Below are positions 30,542-55,413 of a stretch of DNA of 57,652 nt, piece after piece (the first letter of the stretch is position 1; every line of letters begins with the position of its first letter). The notes under the pieces are model-generated. The model worked only from the letters and a program-made list of their open reading frames with translations. It did no database searches and had not been told where the DNA came from. Position numbers and translations under genes: made by a program. Where the stretch lies: contig CAZZLQ010000005.1 of assembly GCA_964655245.1 (NCBI GenBank), positions 1 through 57,652 on the forward strand, read 5' to 3'. The DNA is from an uncultured Bacteriovoracaceae bacterium. Lineage in GTDB: Bacteria; Bdellovibrionota; UBA2394.

Positions 30542-32353
30542 GTGTCGATTCTTTTGAATGCTGAAAATCTTTCGATGTCCTTTGAAGCAAAAACCTTGTT
30601 TCAAGAGATCGGCTTCTCCATTCACGAGGGCGAGAAAATCGGACTTATCGGTTCAAACGCCGCCGGCAAATCGACGCTTCTGAAAATCATCGCTCGCAAA
30701 CTAGAGCCCGACTCAGGGCGACTTGTGTTTCGGGCCAATACCACCGTGAGCACTCTCGAGCAGGATCCCCAGTTTAAGCCTGGGCAAAGCGTGCTTGAAG
30801 CACTCCATGAAGCACTTCCGCACGAAGAAGCCTGGCAAGTTCAAATCAAATCCGAGGAAATGATTTGGCAGCTAGGCCTGAGGAATTGGGCAATCGATTT
30901 TACCCAAGATGTGGGAGCTCTTTCCGGAGGTTGGAAAAAGCGAGTAGCACTTCTCAAAGCTCTTCTTCCAAAGCCCGATCTCTTGCTGCTCGATGAGCCC
31001 ACGAACCATCTCGACATTGAGGGAATTCTTTGGCTTGAAGCAGTGATTGCACAGTCCAAGTATGCCTGTTTGACGATTACTCACGATCGAGTCTTTCTTC
31101 AGCGAGTCAGCAAACGAATCCTGGAGCTCGACAGACGAAACCCCCATGGGCTTTTGAACGTCGAGGGCTCATACCAGGAATATCTGCAAACCAAAGAGGC
31201 GATGTTGATTGCACAGCAAGGTCGAGAGGCTTCTCTTCGATCTATTTTGAGACGAGAGACCGAATGGCTCAAAGCCGGAGTCAAAGCTCAACGCAGCAAA
31301 CAAAGCGCACGCATCCAACGCCACGCTGTTTTCAGCGGTGAACTCAAAGACACGGCAAGCCGAAACACGGAAACATCGATCAGCATGGAGTTTCAGTCGG
31401 CCAAGGAACCTCCCAAGAGATTGCTCGAAGCCAAGAGAATCTCGAAATCGTTTGCACCTGATCACAAGCTGTTTCATGACCTGGATCTGTTTATTGGTCC
31501 CGATACTCGACTGGGCATCATTGGAGAAAATGGCTGCGGCAAATCAACTCTCCTCAAGGTCCTGCTCGATGAAGAGCGCCCAGACTCAGGGCACATCTTT
31601 CGATCTGAACTTCTGAAAGCAGCATTTTTTGAGCAGAACAGAAGCGCTCTTGACCCCAATCAAAGTCTGATGCGAGCAGTTTGTCCTTACGGTGATTCAG
31701 TTTACTTTCAGGGGCGTCAGGTTCACATTCGAAGCTATCTTGATCGATTTTTGTTTTCTCAAGAACAACTTGATCTTCCCATTTCTAAACTCTCCGGAGG
31801 AGAACAAAGTCGTGTGCTCATTGCAAAGCTCATGCTGATTGAATGCAATCTGCTAGTCCTTGATGAGCCTACGAATGATCTTGATCTCATGAGCCTCAAT
31901 ATTCTTCAAGATTGTCTGAACGAATTCGAGGGAGCTGTCATTCTTGTGAGCCATGATCGCTACTTCTTAGATCAAGTTTCTGAGGATATTTTAGCCTTCC
32001 CGGTGGAGCCTCGAGCCAAGAAGCGAGGTGAGCTGGGTCGCTTCTCCAGTATCACTCAGTGGGAGAGCTGGCATCGCAGCCAAACTGAAGAGGCGATCGT
32101 CGAAACCCCACAATCAAAAAAGAATAGTCCCAAGGAGACTCCTGCTCCCAGGAGTCATACGTCAAACAACCAGCTCAACCAGATGACCAAAAAGATTGAG
32201 CAGCTCGAAAAAAAGGCCAAACGTCTGGAGGATGAGTGTCAGCAATTGAATGAAGCAGGAAAAGTTTCTGAGCTGATTTCTAAGGGTCAGGAACTTGCGA
32301 GCGTTCAAGCTGAGATTGACCAACTCTACAAAGACTGGGAGAGCCTTGCGTAA
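30542..32353 (+). CDS. ABC-F family ATPase (Uup-like)
   Basis: Two ABC cassettes (GKST, LSGG, LLDEPTN, HDR twice), no TM segments, C-terminal coiled coil. Confidence 0.9.
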   Translation: MSILLNAENLSMSFEAKTLFQEIGFSIHEGEKIGLIGSNAAGKSTLLKIIARKLEPDSGRLVFRANTTVSTLEQDPQFKPGQSVLEALHEALPHEEAWQVQIKSEEMIWQLGLRNWAIDFTQDVGALSGGWKKRVALLKALLPKPDLLLLDEPTNHLDIEGILWLEAVIAQSKYACLTITHDRVFLQRVSKRILELDRRNPHGLLNVEGSYQEYLQTKEAMLIAQQGREASLRSILRRETEWLKAGVKAQRSKQSARIQRHAVFSGELKDTASRNTETSISMEFQSAKEPPKRLLEAKRISKSFAPDHKLFHDLDLFIGPDTRLGIIGENGCGKSTLLKVLLDEERPDSGHIFRSELLKAAFFEQNRSALDPNQSLMRAVCPYGDSVYFQGRQVHIRSYLDRFLFSQEQLDLPISKLSGGEQSRVLIAKLMLIECNLLVLDEPTNDLDLMSLNILQDCLNEFEGAVILVSHDRYFLDQVSEDILAFPVEPRAKKRGELGRFSSITQWESWHRSQTEEAIVETPQSKKNSPKETPAPRSHTSNNQLNQMTKKIEQLEKKAKRLEDECQQLNEAGKVSELISKGQELASVQAEIDQLYKDWESLA

Positions 32354-32458
32354 GCAATGCCCCATCGATCGAGTCCCGACTGCCGCACGACTTGGTTTGA
32401 CGGTGAGCCTAAGAACCTGAAAATTCAGTGAATTTAATGGGTGAACAGACTTGGCATT

Positions 32459-32474
32459 TGGCCCCTCATTTGCA
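32459..32474 (+). promoter_or_regulatory. sigma54-type promoter
   Basis: TGGCCCCTCATTTGCA: GG-N10-GC. Confidence 0.6.
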
Positions 32475-32486
32475 CAGATAGGGGTT

Positions 32487-33794
32487 GTGAACCTGAGGTG
32501 TTGGTCATTCGTGCCGTTTTCATTCTTTGCCCTTGTGGCAATAGGCACAGCATGCCCCGAACTTTTGGCTCACGATCCAAGCAGTGATTGTTCGTCCAGA
32601 CTAAAAAAAGTGACCGTGCAATCGAGTTCCCAAGCCATCACAGAGTTTCTCAAGCGAACGGGCATGAAGCCCGCCTTCAATGCTGCAGAAGAAAAGAAAT
32701 TTTTTGCCAAAGCACTTTTGCTCGAAGATCGCATTATCAAAGCGGCCTATCAGCACAAACTTACCGACGTGGAGTTATCGGACAAACGAACAAAAAAAAT
32801 CAGTCAGATCATTCTGCCCCTGCTGAAGCAGATTCCAGCTCTACAAAGCTCTCCCGAAACCCAAGCTCTTGCTGCTGACCTCAAAGAATGGAGCGAGATG
32901 CGAGAGGAACTTATCAAAAGAAATTTAGGCCTACTCGTTGTCGCTGTCCAAAGAATCAAAGATCATTCCCGGTGGGAGCATCAGATCAGCGATCAGCTCG
33001 CTAAACTTAATCAAGCTTTCCAGGGATTTGAACCCAAGTTGAATTTTAAGTTCTCAACCTACGCCATGCGCGCCTTGTTTCAAGGAATTGGAGCAACCAC
33101 AGCAAAAATGCTTTCTCCTCAATTTACCAACTCTCAGTCGCACTTGCTGGCCAAAAGAATCAAGGCTCGAATGGAAGAAAGATTTCGTCAAGACAATGTC
33201 GAGATGTCAGTCGGGGAGATCGCCGAAGAGTTTAAGATTTCGGTTCACCGAGCACGAAGTTTATTGGCGCTTTCGAGCATCCGAGCCATTGAACTGGATG
33301 CCAAGCTGAGTGCGGACTCTGACTTCGACAATGGAGATCTCGTGGCAGCAACTGAGTATCAAAGTCTTAGAAGCTTGGAGAAATCGGAGCAACGCCTTCG
33401 TTTGATAAGGGAGCTTCTTGATAAAATCACCGACCCGACGACCCGAGAGGTCATGACACTGAAAAGTCAAGGTTTGACCCTGCTCGATATTGTCAAAAGG
33501 CTTGATGGCGAAATCCTTAGCAAGCAGGGAGTCAAATTGAGATACGAAGAAGGTGTCCGCGCTCTGAGAGCCATCACTGCGATTGAAGCAGGCAAGGTGT
33601 CCTTGCCGACCTCAAAGCAGATTCTCATCGACTTTTATGGTCTTTATGGCCGACAAAAGCGCGCGCACCATCTCATCGCCGCCGAACAAAACATCAGCAG
33701 GACAGAGGTTCTTTCAATCATTCAGAACCTTACCAAAAACGCCAATGAGGATTGGCTCGATAAAATTCTGGAATCACGACAGTCTCATCGCTGA
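32487..33794 (+). CDS. Divergent sigma70-family factor with N-terminal signal peptide
   Basis: Region 1.2 (EFLKRTGMKPAFNAAEE), 2.1 (REELIKRNLGLL), 2.3 (FEPKLNFKFSTYA), 3 (EIAEEFKIS..ELDA), region 4-like HTH; hydrophobic leader ending ELLA; start 32487 or 32511. Confidence 0.75.
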   Translation: MNLRCWSFVPFSFFALVAIGTACPELLAHDPSSDCSSRLKKVTVQSSSQAITEFLKRTGMKPAFNAAEEKKFFAKALLLEDRIIKAAYQHKLTDVELSDKRTKKISQIILPLLKQIPALQSSPETQALAADLKEWSEMREELIKRNLGLLVVAVQRIKDHSRWEHQISDQLAKLNQAFQGFEPKLNFKFSTYAMRALFQGIGATTAKMLSPQFTNSQSHLLAKRIKARMEERFRQDNVEMSVGEIAEEFKISVHRARSLLALSSIRAIELDAKLSADSDFDNGDLVAATEYQSLRSLEKSEQRLRLIRELLDKITDPTTREVMTLKSQGLTLLDIVKRLDGEILSKQGVKLRYEEGVRALRAITAIEAGKVSLPTSKQILIDFYGLYGRQKRAHHLIAAEQNISRTEVLSIIQNLTKNANEDWLDKILESRQSHR

Positions 33795-33803
33795 CAACAT
33801 CGA

Positions 33804-34835
33804 TTAGAACGGATCGACCACCAACCACTGGTTCTGGCCTGGATCAAAAACGACTCGAGCAATATTGGGATCAAGAGCAACGGGTCCCGCCTCAAAGAAC
33901 ATAAGGTAGGGAGTTCGAAGTTTCTGCATGAGAGAATTATAAAAACGGGCATGCTGAAAACTAAAGGCTTCCAAGATCTGGAGCGGCAGGATTTCTCGGT
34001 CGACCAAGTCTTGGATATCCTCAATCGACAAGCCCGCATGAAAAGAGAGGACTATTCGTTGTGAGGGCTCATCGACCATTAAAATTTTTGAACTCATCGC
34101 ATTCTGAGAGGAAAGAAACTCAAAAGTCTTTCTTTGTCGTTCAAAGACAGAGGTATCTCCCAAGATCTGTTTGACTAAGAAGAGCTCCTGATCCTTGCGA
34201 GTCAAATGAATCTTGGACAGCTCCCGCTCCTCCAAGAGACGTATAAACTCGTACTTTTGCTGATTGATCTCGGCGAACTCCGAATTCAAGAGCACTTTTG
34301 TTTTGGACTGAATAACGGACGGAAGAATCTCAACGAGTCTAGGCAACAAGCGTTTAAAGACGCGATCCTGTTCTTTCACGAATTTATTGAACAAGGATCT
34401 GAGCTGACGATGATCTCGAATCCATGGAGCCTCTTTTCCGCGGCCCTGCCGGCGAACCCACATCTCAAACAACTCAGCAATCTGGAAATCGTGATTTCGA
34501 AACGAACTCCCCACCTCAAGGCCATGCTCTGGACGAACAAGCTGCGGCAGAACCTGAGCGAGATGCTTGGGCGTCAGGGGCTGATCAGATGATTGAGTGA
34601 GTGAGGTCAAAAGTTTTGAGCAAAACGGATTTGGGCCCAAAACTTCCCCATGAAAATCGGTAGCTGACAGCAATGCGGACAAAATCCAGATCAACGCAGG
34701 ACTCCCTTGAAGCCCTCTGTTAACCCGAGGTTTTGACCAAAGGCAAGCCCCCCCCGGGGCTAGTTCCGGCATCCGAAGGTTGAGGTAAGGCGCTAAATTG
34801 TTTAGGCTTTTCGAATGGGTCGACAATGGCTTCAC
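33804..34835 (-). CDS. Exported hypothetical protein, possible atypical protein-kinase-like fold
   Basis: Hydrophobic leader LIWILSALLSA; C-terminal half resembles Bud32/RIO-type kinases (FLVKQ, ILMVDEPSQRIVLSFHAG, LDPN, LVVDP); true start is probably well downstream of 34835. Confidence 0.5.
   Translation of the reverse strand: MKPLSTHSKSLNNLAPYLNLRMPELAPGGACLWSKPRVNRGLQGSPALIWILSALLSATDFHGEVLGPNPFCSKLLTSLTQSSDQPLTPKHLAQVLPQLVRPEHGLEVGSSFRNHDFQIAELFEMWVRRQGRGKEAPWIRDHRQLRSLFNKFVKEQDRVFKRLLPRLVEILPSVIQSKTKVLLNSEFAEINQQKYEFIRLLEERELSKIHLTRKDQELFLVKQILGDTSVFERQRKTFEFLSSQNAMSSKILMVDEPSQRIVLSFHAGLSIEDIQDLVDREILPLQILEAFSFQHARFYNSLMQKLRTPYLMFFEAGPVALDPNIARVVFDPGQNQWLVVDPF
34780..34808 (+). promoter_or_regulatory. 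sigma70-type promoter of a probably leaderless yebC mRNA
   Basis: TTGAGG-17nt-TAGGCT-6nt-ATG. Confidence 0.55.
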
Positions 34836-35596: not shown

Positions 35597-37033
35597 ATGC
35601 TCGGGGGGATTGTCGCGGCCATCATCATGACTTCTGCGATCTCGAAATCAGATCGCGTGATTCAGCACGAGAAGGTGGCTCAAGAATTCGAAGGCATTGT
35701 GTTTTTTGATGAGGGAAGGGGAATGACTCTCTCACCTGACTTCATCAACATCTATGAGTTTCTCGCATGGATGTTTGACCTCTCAAAACCTCGCCAAGTT
35801 GCAAGTCCTCAAGCCCTGGGTACGCGGATTTCTTTTAATCGTCGCTGGGGGATCGTCAATCACGACAAAGAGCTCAAAGGATTTTTTAATGTTTCTTACA
35901 AAGATCTGAATGTCGGAGCGCTAGGATGCGTTGCTTGTCATAGCGGGAAAGCTGCAGGAGTTTATATCACGGGCCTTGGCAACAAGAACATCGACCCAGG
36001 ACAAGTAGGAGAGGATGCGTATCGCAGTCTCAAACTTTGGCAAGCACTCCACTTCTGGAAAGATAAATCAAAAGACTACCAAGAGATTGAGGACCGCTCG
36101 ATTGAATTCGCAAGACGACTCAAAAACAAAGAACACAACAATCTCACTCAGGGATTGGTGCCTGTTGCAATCATTCAGCAGTGGTTCTATCTCCAAGCGG
36201 GACGCGATCTTCCTGACGGCCATGGTCGTGGTGCCGTCAAGGTTCCACACTTTTGGGGCTATGGTGAGAAGCGCTTCGTGGGTCAATTCTCCGATGGATT
36301 TGGAGACGGAGCGCACCCTGGGTGGGGGCTCTTGGTGGAACTTGTAGGCGGGCAGAGTGTGGAAGGAGCCGAAAGACTCATGCCCAGAGTCGCGCAACTG
36401 GAAGACGACTTAGCTCACATTCTACCGCCACGATATCCCTTTGAAGTTCACGCTTCCAAAAGCGCTCAAGGGAAAATCATCTTTGAGCAGTTTTGTAGCG
36501 GCTGCCATGGAACATACGAACAAGACTCGGAAGGCTGGCCAGTCTTCAAAGCACCCCAATTGATTGCGCATTCAAAGGTAAAAACGGATCCCGATAGACT
36601 CAATATCATCACCGATGATTTCTTGAATCTCGTTCATACGAATCCGTTAAACCATGAGATCAGAATCAAGCCGCAAACAGAGAAAGGATACTTTGCTCCT
36701 CGCCTTGAGGGAATCTGGTCACGCTTTCCTTATCTTCATAATGCATCAGTCCCATCCATTCGAGCGCTCCTGACAGCTCCCGAGAGGCGGCCCAAGGTCT
36801 GGAGCCTACGCGATGCAGGAGAACGAGAGCGATTTGACGAGAAGGATCTCGGACTCAAGGTTCCAGCAAAGTCCGAACTCAAAGACTTGCAAAGAAAAGC
36901 CAAAAGCGAAGATCGCGAAGTCTACGATGTCACGCGACCAGGCCATTCAAACCAAGGGCACTGGTTTCGGTTTTCCCCAGACTTAACCGAGCAGGATGTG
37001 GACTCCTTAATCGAGTATTTGAAAACCCTCTAA
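35597..37033 (+). CDS. Di-heme c-type cytochrome (RoxA-like family)
   Basis: Two heme motifs CVACH and CSGCH; LEGIWSRFPYLHNASVP; GHSNQGH; LIEYLKTL. Confidence 0.75.
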   Translation: MLGGIVAAIIMTSAISKSDRVIQHEKVAQEFEGIVFFDEGRGMTLSPDFINIYEFLAWMFDLSKPRQVASPQALGTRISFNRRWGIVNHDKELKGFFNVSYKDLNVGALGCVACHSGKAAGVYITGLGNKNIDPGQVGEDAYRSLKLWQALHFWKDKSKDYQEIEDRSIEFARRLKNKEHNNLTQGLVPVAIIQQWFYLQAGRDLPDGHGRGAVKVPHFWGYGEKRFVGQFSDGFGDGAHPGWGLLVELVGGQSVEGAERLMPRVAQLEDDLAHILPPRYPFEVHASKSAQGKIIFEQFCSGCHGTYEQDSEGWPVFKAPQLIAHSKVKTDPDRLNIITDDFLNLVHTNPLNHEIRIKPQTEKGYFAPRLEGIWSRFPYLHNASVPSIRALLTAPERRPKVWSLRDAGERERFDEKDLGLKVPAKSELKDLQRKAKSEDREVYDVTRPGHSNQGHWFRFSPDLTEQDVDSLIEYLKTL

Positions 37034-43128: not shown

Positions 43129-43144
43129 TGGCACTGCCCTTGCT
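43129..43144 (+). promoter_or_regulatory. sigma54-type promoter
   Basis: TGGCACTGCCCTTGCT, near-perfect -24/-12 consensus. Confidence 0.7.
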
Positions 43145-54970: not shown

Positions 54971-55306
54971 GTGCAAAAGCTTCACCATTTCATTTTCAGT
55001 CTAAAGATTTTCAGCGTCAGCCTTGTGGTAGCCGGCAGCCTTCAGGCGAGTCCGATCAGCTCAAAAACACCGCGTTCCAACTCATCTCAGGAACTTGATT
55101 CCAGCACCAGTCGCTTCGCCCTCAGCCAAACGGAGGAACGCAGATCGTTTTGCTCCTCGCTCTTTCACCAGGCCTACGATTCATGCTGTAAGTCAGAGTC
55201 CGGCTGCAACGAAACTCAACAAGAGCGGCACTGCAACGGCGAAGCCAACACCATTCACGAAAGTTGCCTTTCTGCCTCACAGAGGACGACGAACAGCTTT
55301 TATTGA
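54971..55306 (+). CDS. Small exported six-cysteine protein
   Basis: SD GGAGG before GTG 54971; signal ending SLQA; six Cys in the C-terminal half. Confidence 0.6.
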   Translation: MQKLHHFIFSLKIFSVSLVVAGSLQASPISSKTPRSNSSQELDSSTSRFALSQTEERRSFCSSLFHQAYDSCCKSESGCNETQQERHCNGEANTIHESCLSASQRTTNSFY

Positions 55307-55397: not shown

Positions 55398-55413
55398 TGG
55401 CATATTCTTTGCT
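55398..55413 (+). promoter_or_regulatory. sigma54-type promoter
   Basis: TGGCATATTCTTTGCT: GG-N10-GC. Confidence 0.65.

Follow-up and report, generated by a model that had tools for sequence, protein, structure and literature searches.

A strongly diverged sigma-70-family protein with a predicted export-type leader from an uncultured Bacteriovoracaceae bacterium

The DNA analysed here, called the window, is a stretch of 57,652 nucleotides from contig CAZZLQ010000005.1 of an uncultured Bacteriovoracaceae bacterium, whose genome is designated G000. On the plus strand, positions 32487..33794 encode a protein of 435 amino acids, counted from a GTG start codon and followed by a stop, which is a remote but clear homologue of sigma-70-family transcription factors and which appears to begin with a signal peptide of the type recognised by the Sec machinery and signal peptidase I (Sec/SPI). 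Sigma factors are textbook examples of strictly cytoplasmic proteins. The parts of the protein would follow one another in the order leader, cysteine-containing linker, region-1.2-like part, sigma-2, sigma-3, sigma-4 and an extra sigma-4-like module. What seems to be new, pending experiment, is a sigma-70-family protein that combines an export-type leader with an altered sigma-2 domain. A search of open-access full text, a body of literature that leaves subscription journals uncovered, found no paper on a sigma-family protein with a secretion signal, as judged from titles and the beginnings of abstracts, and none on a sigma factor described as membrane-anchored.

The relationship to sigma factors is evident from profiles and from structure prediction, and regions 1.2 to 4, which an earlier model-made examination of the letters (the sequence-only reading) had recognised, are upheld by both. 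The protein misses every curated sigma-family cut-off of Pfam (gathering scores) and NCBIfam. Pfam gave nothing significant (best E 0.01), and the best NCBIfam match is to TIGR02997 of the RpoD/SigA subfamily (E 1.7e-11, residues 108-338, 44 bits vs a cut-off of 384.5). The NCBIfam alignments start at residues 108-113; those to the SigK and SigE models are weak (E 1e-4 to 4e-3) and leave the N-terminus uncovered. A search of G000 with Sigma70_r2 (PF04542) finds five other loci and not the gene in the window. When the family profile was compared with PDB sequences, 63 matched at E ≤ 0.001, the best being RpoD (1.9e-16), and the best 60 of these 63 are all sigma factors. The AlphaFold model, built from an alignment of 12 family rows and 66 ordinary sigma factors that may bias it toward the sigma fold, has a mean predicted local distance difference test score (pLDDT) of 86.1; values lie below about 50 for residues 1-56 and mostly exceed 85 for residues 62-447. 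Its best Foldseek matches are SigA and RpoS chains from RNA polymerase complexes (best E 3.1e-7); the template modelling scores are low, 0.3-0.5, as is to be expected for a free multi-domain model compared with sigma factors stretched over the polymerase. A feature search of a protein atlas returned sigma clusters only, with some viral sigma-like clusters among the neighbours.

Close relatives are rare. Only eight representatives at E ≤ 1.6e-23 were found among 1.84 billion cluster representatives, and a word-indexed search retrieved six family representatives. Among 401 sampled genomes of the phylum, strong matches (E ≤ 1e-127) occur only in G000, in G001, a genome of the same genus with a syntenic orthologue encoding a protein 65% identical to that of the window, and in G003, which harbors two diverged paralogues of the family on short contigs (L003, L012, L041), both types with a leader. 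Twelve more of these genomes match at E-values of 1.8e-25 to 9.5e-16 over sigma-2 to sigma-4, in frames of 343-899 amino acids, and these matches are taken to be ordinary sigma factors. A pattern scan of metagenomes yielded eight stretches, one of which is a family member (L046, on a metagenome contig), and a scan of genome contigs with the family alignment matched at least 600 stretches, mostly ordinary sigma factors; 14 of these were confirmed and none is a family member. Several metagenomes of freshwater and aquaculture origin, produced by different studies, contain low-depth fragments identical to this strain. Four DNA runs contain identical low-depth fragments of the same strain, with a single C>T difference at 32344, and yielded neither informative variation nor transcript ends; no RNA run containing the sequence was found among the sequencing runs. 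The gene appears to encode a lineage-restricted and strongly diverged member of the sigma-70 family.

Whether the protein has a leader at all depends on where translation starts. Beginning at TTG 32451, the reading frame stays open as far as the stop at 33792-33794; codons 1-12 and 41-71 and residues 380-447, as mentioned below, are counted from this TTG. In the public protein collection the gene is present solely as a call of 376 amino acids (P0001) that starts at ATG 32664 with the sequence MKPAF. If this were the true start, the hydrophobic stretch would be untranslated 5' sequence and the product an ordinary cytoplasmic sigma factor, the case in which, according to the sequence-only reading, the idea of export would fall. 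The entries P0001, P0004 and P0005 indeed begin at or next to MKPAF; gene callers systematically clip such leaders where the start codon is GTG. Codon-by-codon comparison of two genomes, G000 and G001, showed identities of 0.74/0.77/0.39 at the three codon positions of codons 41-71, 5' of MKPAF, with proportions of nonsynonymous and synonymous differences (pN and pS) of 0.27 and 0.67. The gene body gives 0.75/0.81/0.43, and the similar pattern indicates that the stretch upstream of MKPAF is coding. Furthermore, P0006 and P0008 have isoleucine in place of the MKPAF methionine, the open frame and the leader are retained down to 29-39% identity, and an ATG directly precedes the leader both in a G003 paralogue (72 bases past the upstream gene and 6 codons past a stop) and in L046 (stop 6 codons upstream). 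A start at MKPAF was therefore rejected, and an ordinary sigma factor beginning there appears largely refuted; we give it very little credence.

A start at TTG 32451 was rejected as well. Codons 1-12 show identities of 1.0/0.75/0.92 and a pS of 0.05, vs about 0.7 elsewhere, so that all three positions are conserved, as in DNA constrained at the nucleotide level and non-coding; these codons are part of the conserved block 32336-32486 described below. Together with the ATG that P0003 carries exactly at the position of GTG 32487, and with the coding character of codons 41-71, this makes GTG 32487 the best supported translation start, in agreement with the start used in the sequence-only reading. 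The predicted precursor of 435 amino acids then has the N-terminus MNLRCWSFVPFSFFALVAIGTACPELLA↓HDPSSDC, where the arrow marks the predicted cut.

Signal peptides for Sec/SPI, following von Heijne, have a positive or neutral n-region, a hydrophobic core of about 7-15 residues and small residues at positions -3 and -1. These features were assessed by a home-made rule check. The leader of the window protein, MNLR-CWSFVPFSFFALVAIGTACPELLA (32487..32570, plus strand; pLDDT below 50), can be divided into MNLR, CWSFVPFSFFALVAIG and TACPELLA↓HD, with a rule-based cut after LLA that would remove 28 amino acids. A hydrophobic leader is found in all eight family members with a readable N-terminus, which are the window protein, P0002 (G001), P0003, P0006, P0008, P0009 (also L041 and L046), P0010 and P0012; the short MKPAF-type calls P0004 and P0005 and the fragments P0011 and P0013 were left out of this count. 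The leader is thus conserved, and the consistent lack of it in homologues, which the sequence-only reading had named as a result that would speak against export, was not encountered. The maximum Kyte-Doolittle hydropathy over nine residues is 2.57-3.44 in the eight N-termini, vs less than 1.0 in those of three other G000 sigma factors (RpoD, FliA and the one on contig C43). Uncharged cores span 10-19 residues, mostly 10-15, the net charge of the n-region is 0 to +3, and each of the eight has at least one (-3,-1) site, among them LLA↓H, ALA↓E, SLA↓Q, LEA↓L and VEA↓L. The eight residues past the chosen site have a net charge of -2 to 0 in six cases, and of +1 and +2 in the remaining ones. No part of the protein has changed faster between G000 and G001 than the leader (37% identity), which shows identities of 0.41/0.56/0.41 by codon position. 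Fast evolution with the second codon position best kept, as seen here, is usual in signal peptides. By these hallmarks the leader can be regarded as a putative Sec/SPI signal peptide.

Other classes of leader fit less well. A cysteine is located 4-10 residues past the predicted cut in all members. In the window (codon 32589..32591, plus strand) it is the sole cysteine of the predicted mature protein of 407 residues, and it is conserved in every homologue that covers the position. The sequence-only reading had considered GTAC as a possible signal peptidase II (SPII) site. Lipoprotein signals have a lipobox directly before the cysteine; lipobox-like sequences occur only as IGTA↓C in the window protein and IILA↓C in P0006, and are missing from P0002, P0003, P0008, P0009, P0010 and P0012. 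The conserved cysteine instead follows polar residues, for example SSD, RGG, GPT or SKT. A lipoprotein signal was accordingly rejected, and the suggestion of an SPII site at GTAC is not borne out by the homologues. A twin-arginine (Tat) signal was rejected too, since an RR motif is present only in P0002 of G001 (SRRF, by chance) and in neither the window protein nor the six other readable N-termini. Inspection by eye revealed no G/FTLIE-type motif, which disposes of a type IV pilin-type leader.

The part after the leader (32571..32897, plus strand) consists, by alignment and model, of the linker and N-terminal helices (H48-70, H78-101 and H113-157 in the model), including the region-1.2-like part and two family-specific motifs, EEKxFF and ILPLL. 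It is followed by the sigma-2-like domain with regions 2.1-2.4 (32898..33125), the sigma-3-like domain (33126..33365) and the sigma-4-like domain with the first helix-turn-helix (33366..33587), all on the plus strand, the last two being delimited by profile matches and the model. In the sigma-2-like domain RNLGL, KLNxAFxxFEP and FKFSTYA are retained, whereas the DLIQEG motif of region 2.2 and the tryptophan pair of region 2.3 are gone. This pair is used in promoter melting by ordinary sigma factors. Motif columns were scored for 11 family rows and 66 ordinary sigma factors. The two tryptophan columns hold W in 44 and 62 of the 66 ordinary sequences and in none of the 11 family rows, which have R, Q or H in the first and A, S or T in the second; the motif of the window protein, FKFSTYAMRALFQGI (33045..33089, plus strand), has R-A in place of W-W by this column comparison, while RpoD of G000 itself reads DLIQEGNIGLMKAVDKFEY...YKFSTYATWWIRQAI. 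In region 2.2, the residues of the D, G and G columns (62, 63 and 65 of the 66 ordinary sequences) are replaced in 11/11 family rows, with an acidic residue still present in the E column of nine. The loss of the tryptophan pair and the degeneration of region 2.2, both pointed out in the sequence-only reading, are therefore properties of the whole family. The arginine of NLRLV (54/66 ordinary sigma factors) is glycine in all 11 family rows.

Other motifs are kept. Ordinary sigma factors use FKFSTYA at the -10 element, and in the family it is invariant or nearly so, with F, K, F and Y in 11/11 rows. Strong conservation is also seen in motifs particular to the family (RNLGL, KLNxAFxxFEP, ELDA and GLYG), and together with that of FKFSTYA it indicates that the window protein is under selection rather than decaying. 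The predicted mature protein is basic, with an isoelectric point (pI) of 9.5. Co-folding of the sigma-2-like part (residues 72-230, with the family alignment) and a piece of the G000 beta-prime clamp helices (residues 232-330) gave a score of 0.02 and a mark of 0.32, a result that weighs neither way.

A doubled region 4 had also been proposed. The C-terminal extension (33588..33791, plus strand; FYGLYG ... HLIAAEQNISRTEV) forms four helices beyond the first region-4 unit in the AlphaFold model (residues 380-447), in a pattern of the same kind as region 4. Residues 383-423 align with region 4 of the NCBIfam SigK model (E 1.4e-4), and hhalign matches the family extension to the family's own region 4 in the expected register (E 0.001, probability 21%), better than to regions 3 or 2. 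Pfam Sigma70_r4 matched two of seven extensions, P0009 (E 7e-4) and P0010 (E 0.012), both below the cut-off. A second, degenerate region-4-like helix-turn-helix is likely, with weak to moderate support.

The window protein is not the only sigma-type protein of G000 with a leader. The Sigma70_r2 search of this genome gave five matches at E ≤ 0.01, four of them over the cut-off. RpoD (contig C52), a sigma factor in a 349-amino-acid frame (C43) and FliA (C6) have ordinary N-termini. A FliA-like protein of 309 amino acids (L057, C7:51183-52112) starts with a leader and cysteine, MKLIASFFLGFLVFSPSLWA↓VSSGC, and a sigma-type protein of 485 amino acids (L056, C16:14421-15878) likewise has a leader and cysteine start, MGYGSLILLFISLQLESSSTPC. 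The C7 protein scores over the Sigma70_r2 cut-off, matches TIGR02479 (E 1e-22) and retains DWVPR; the C16 protein is FliA/ECF-like (ECF, extracytoplasmic function) at E 1e-10 and has a long C-terminal part with repeated helix-turn-helix-like modules. All six members of the C7 family, which is confined to this taxonomic family (3/401 genomes), begin with MK, an uncharged core of 13-15 residues and a (-3,-1) site, then a cysteine. Five of them show PSxWA/PSLRA↓VSS[NG]C, and the most distant one (P0161, 38% identical) differs, with SLIA↓SSIKALDNC. In the C16 family the leader start is found in four of five members, the fifth being a shorter call. A special kinship of the window family with the C7 and C16 families was rejected (hhalign E 0.032 and 0.19), which suggests that leaders sit on two separate sigma lineages at the least, and probably on three.

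The three genes also have a candidate promoter type in common. Upstream of the window gene lies the sigma-54-type -24/-12 element TGGCCCCTCATTTGCA (32459..32474, plus strand), a pattern match with GG and GC elements in TGG-N8-TTGC spacing that is identical in G001; if its GC is at -12, the transcript would begin about 2 bases before GTG 32487. Similar elements precede the C7 gene (TGGCATTTTGATTGCA) and the C16 gene (TGGTATGGAACTTGCT). They are conserved in G001, and for the C7 gene in its G006 orthologue as well (TGGCATATGCCTTGCA); orthologues of the C7 and C16 genes in G001 and G006 keep the leader-cysteine start as well as the element. The gene for sigma-54, rpoN, is present on contig C35 of G000. 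The whole genome has 224 loose sigma-54 motif matches on both strands, vs about 134 expected, or about 0.005 per 100 bases of one strand, a density at which elements before 3/3 leader-bearing genes would very unlikely arise by chance. For the P0009-type copy in G003, inspection by eye of the approximately 80 bases in front of its ATG revealed no such element. The window itself contains four matches to TGGC-N7-TTGCW, vs 1.18 expected; the other three are at 43129-43144 (plus strand), 55232-55247 (minus strand) and 55398-55413 (plus strand).

The promoters bring in the main and a serious rival to export, which is that the hydrophobic N-terminus tethers an otherwise functional alternative sigma factor to the inner membrane and keeps it inactive there until it is set free by a protease, analogous to pro-sigma-K. 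In that case a developmental cascade driven by sigma-54 would have the three sigma-type genes with leaders as its output, which we consider possible rather than probable. Sigma-54-type elements at all three genes and the presence of rpoN agree with this, a cascade from sigma-54 to further sigma factors being classical logic. In addition, the FliA-like C7 paralogue resembles a competent sigma factor, and no obvious pair of an ECF sigma and an anti-sigma factor emerged from the Sigma70_r2 search of G000, a role that fused tethers could fill. For the model system, PMC6242693 describes entry of the pro-sigma-K pro-domain into the membrane-embedded protease SpoIVFB, and a title cited in the same paper credits the prosequence with promoting membrane association and inhibiting core binding. 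The composition of the leaders speaks for a different arrangement: the charges of the n-regions, and the absence of net positive charge from most of the stretches that follow the core, predict an N-in/C-out orientation with the sigma part outside, a stable transmembrane helix would need a longer core than the 10-15 residues of most members, and the (-3,-1) sites are conserved. Moreover, the tryptophan pair and the region 2.2 motif are gone from the window protein, and no protease gene is a conserved neighbour. Retention of the sigma-like protein at the membrane seems to us rather unlikely, if well worth keeping in view.

Export of a sigma-derived protein is the default reading of the sequence. 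The short cores, positive n-regions, neutral or acidic early mature parts and (-3,-1) sites together suggest an N-in/C-out topology with translocation of the sigma part; the precursor would carry a signal peptide of the Sec/SPI type, which would direct the protein across the inner membrane and be cut off after LLA. Predicted export would preclude a conventional role as initiation factor in the cytoplasm of the producer. The sequence-only reading had proposed an exported sigma mimic that could bind a foreign RNA polymerase or promoters and so block or redirect transcription in prey or host, and its export half has gained ground, as the leader is coding, is conserved in 8/8 cases and fits the Sec/SPI rules. 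Several observations weigh on the other side. The leader was called from home-made sequence rules only, P0009 and P0010 have positive charges shortly after the core, and the C16 family has no positive n-region. The C7 FliA-like paralogue, with the same kind of leader, retains good sigma motifs, and the residues for the -10 element in FKFSTYA are fully kept in the window family, which is not simple decay. A cascade from sigma-54 to sigma is what would be expected of real cytoplasmic sigma factors, and to our knowledge sigma factors have no role outside the cytoplasm. We judge the case that the leader exports the sigma-like protein to be evenly poised.

What an exported protein would do is the weakest step. 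Given a lineage presumed to be predatory, and the secretion by Bdellovibrio of nucleases with signal peptides into the prey compartment, the basic mature protein might act on nucleic acid or RNA polymerase of a prey cell as a non-melting sigma decoy: FKFSTYA and three helix-turn-helix units are kept while the tryptophan wedge and the usual core-binding motif are gone, so that it could be a non-productive competitor for the polymerase or DNA of another cell. This small clade of bacteria, whose predatory habit is itself only presumed, might secrete a sigma-54-controlled set of three different sigma-type proteins with Sec signal peptides that reach prey cells, where they would occupy the core RNA polymerase or promoter DNA, conceivably with the window protein as non-melting decoy and the FliA-like protein as redirecting sigma. 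We consider action on prey in general doubtful, and the three-protein scheme and its division of tasks are offered in an equally speculative spirit. It is similarly improbable that the exported protein has no part in transcription and that its sigma fold provides a helical scaffold, periplasmic or on the cell surface, perhaps in a dimer linked by a disulfide through the single cysteine. Such a function would suit the lost region 2.2 and tryptophan motifs, the position of the lone conserved cysteine near the mature N-terminus and the failure of the family to reach curated sigma cut-offs; the continued conservation of FKFSTYA, RNLGL and the helix-turn-helix units does not suit it, the pI of 9.5 is compatible with nucleic-acid binding, and leaders on three sigma-type families point to selection on a property specific to sigma factors.

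A secretion-type leader that recurs in one genome on three sigma-type families, with sigma-54-type promoters in front of all of them, would have consequences under either of two explanations. Either sigma-derived proteins have an undescribed role outside the cytoplasm of the producer, where they might be effectors against other bacteria, or sigma factors are controlled in this lineage through an undescribed N-terminal membrane tether, and both outcomes would be new biology. Take-over of prey transcription, if true, would be the counterpart in bacterial predators of the phage take-over of host transcription.

The surroundings of the gene show a further conserved element. The upstream neighbour is an ABC-F ATPase gene with its stop at 32351-32353, and a block of about 150 bases from this gene to the sigma-like gene (32336..32486, no strand assigned) is 95-100% identical to G001, vs a background of 50-80%, while the adjoining coding DNA has saturated synonymous sites. 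Of 14 genomes of the taxonomic family, 2 have the block. Searches of it for Rfam and tRNA matches were negative, and neither strand gives a folding signal (RNA folding z-scores 0.22 and -0.17). Its conservation is so uniform that the block would seem to be more than a promoter alone. Downstream lie a convergent open reading frame (ORF) for 343 amino acids without known family, yebC, and a gene for a RoxA-like cytochrome c. The convergent ORF was rejected as a conserved partner gene: it is kept in G001, but the gene next to the G003 paralogue bears no relation to it (best BLASTP E 3.3); neither of the two neighbours has a Pfam family. On the minus strand the ORF (33804-34835) overlaps the start of yebC at 34815. 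Roughly 34596-34835, its first approximately 80 codons, are 95-100% identical to G001 at all codon positions, and later codons have a normal coding pattern, which suggests that the ORF start has been set too far upstream and that a second ultra-conserved, non-coding element lies between the ORF and yebC; it has no Rfam match. The RoxA-like/cytochrome c protein (35597-37033, 478 amino acids, PF21419 E 6.6e-14), two genes downstream, has no apparent link to the sigma-like gene.

Among known systems, sigma factors encoded by phages, and sigma appropriators, take over the core RNA polymerase of another cell. Being synthesised within the target cell, phage proteins can do without an export signal, unlike the protein described here, and no specific kinship with them emerged. 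In sequence and fold the best matches are the group 1 and 2 sigma factors RpoD/SigA and RpoS, with which the window protein has in common the domain order (1.2-like, sigma-2, sigma-3, sigma-4), NL(R/G)L, FKFSTYA and the helix-turn-helix units. It differs from them by the Sec-type leader and conserved cysteine, by R/Q/H plus A/S/T in place of the tryptophan pair and the missing DLIQEG-type motif, by the additional region-4-like module and the mature pI of 9.5, and by scores below the curated cut-offs.

Similar to the window protein, pro-sigma-K and pro-sigma-E are sigma-family proteins made with an additional N-terminal segment, which in the window protein is hydrophobic. In Bacillus subtilis pro-sigma-K, according to PMC6242693, a removable N-terminal segment brings the sigma factor to the membrane in an inactive state. 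The leader of the window protein, in contrast, follows the Sec rules (positive n-region, short core, (-3,-1) site) and is followed by a linker of about 100 residues, with no SpoIVFB-type partner nearby. Precedents for nucleic-acid-acting proteins with a signal peptide are Bd0934 and Bd3507 of Bdellovibrio bacteriovorus, nucleases with a predicted signal peptide that, according to PMC7925074, are secreted into the bdelloplast. These are enzymes, not sigma-type proteins, and have no sequence relation to the window protein; the likeness would be that of proteins which act on nucleic acids and carry a signal peptide, both being predictions for the window protein.

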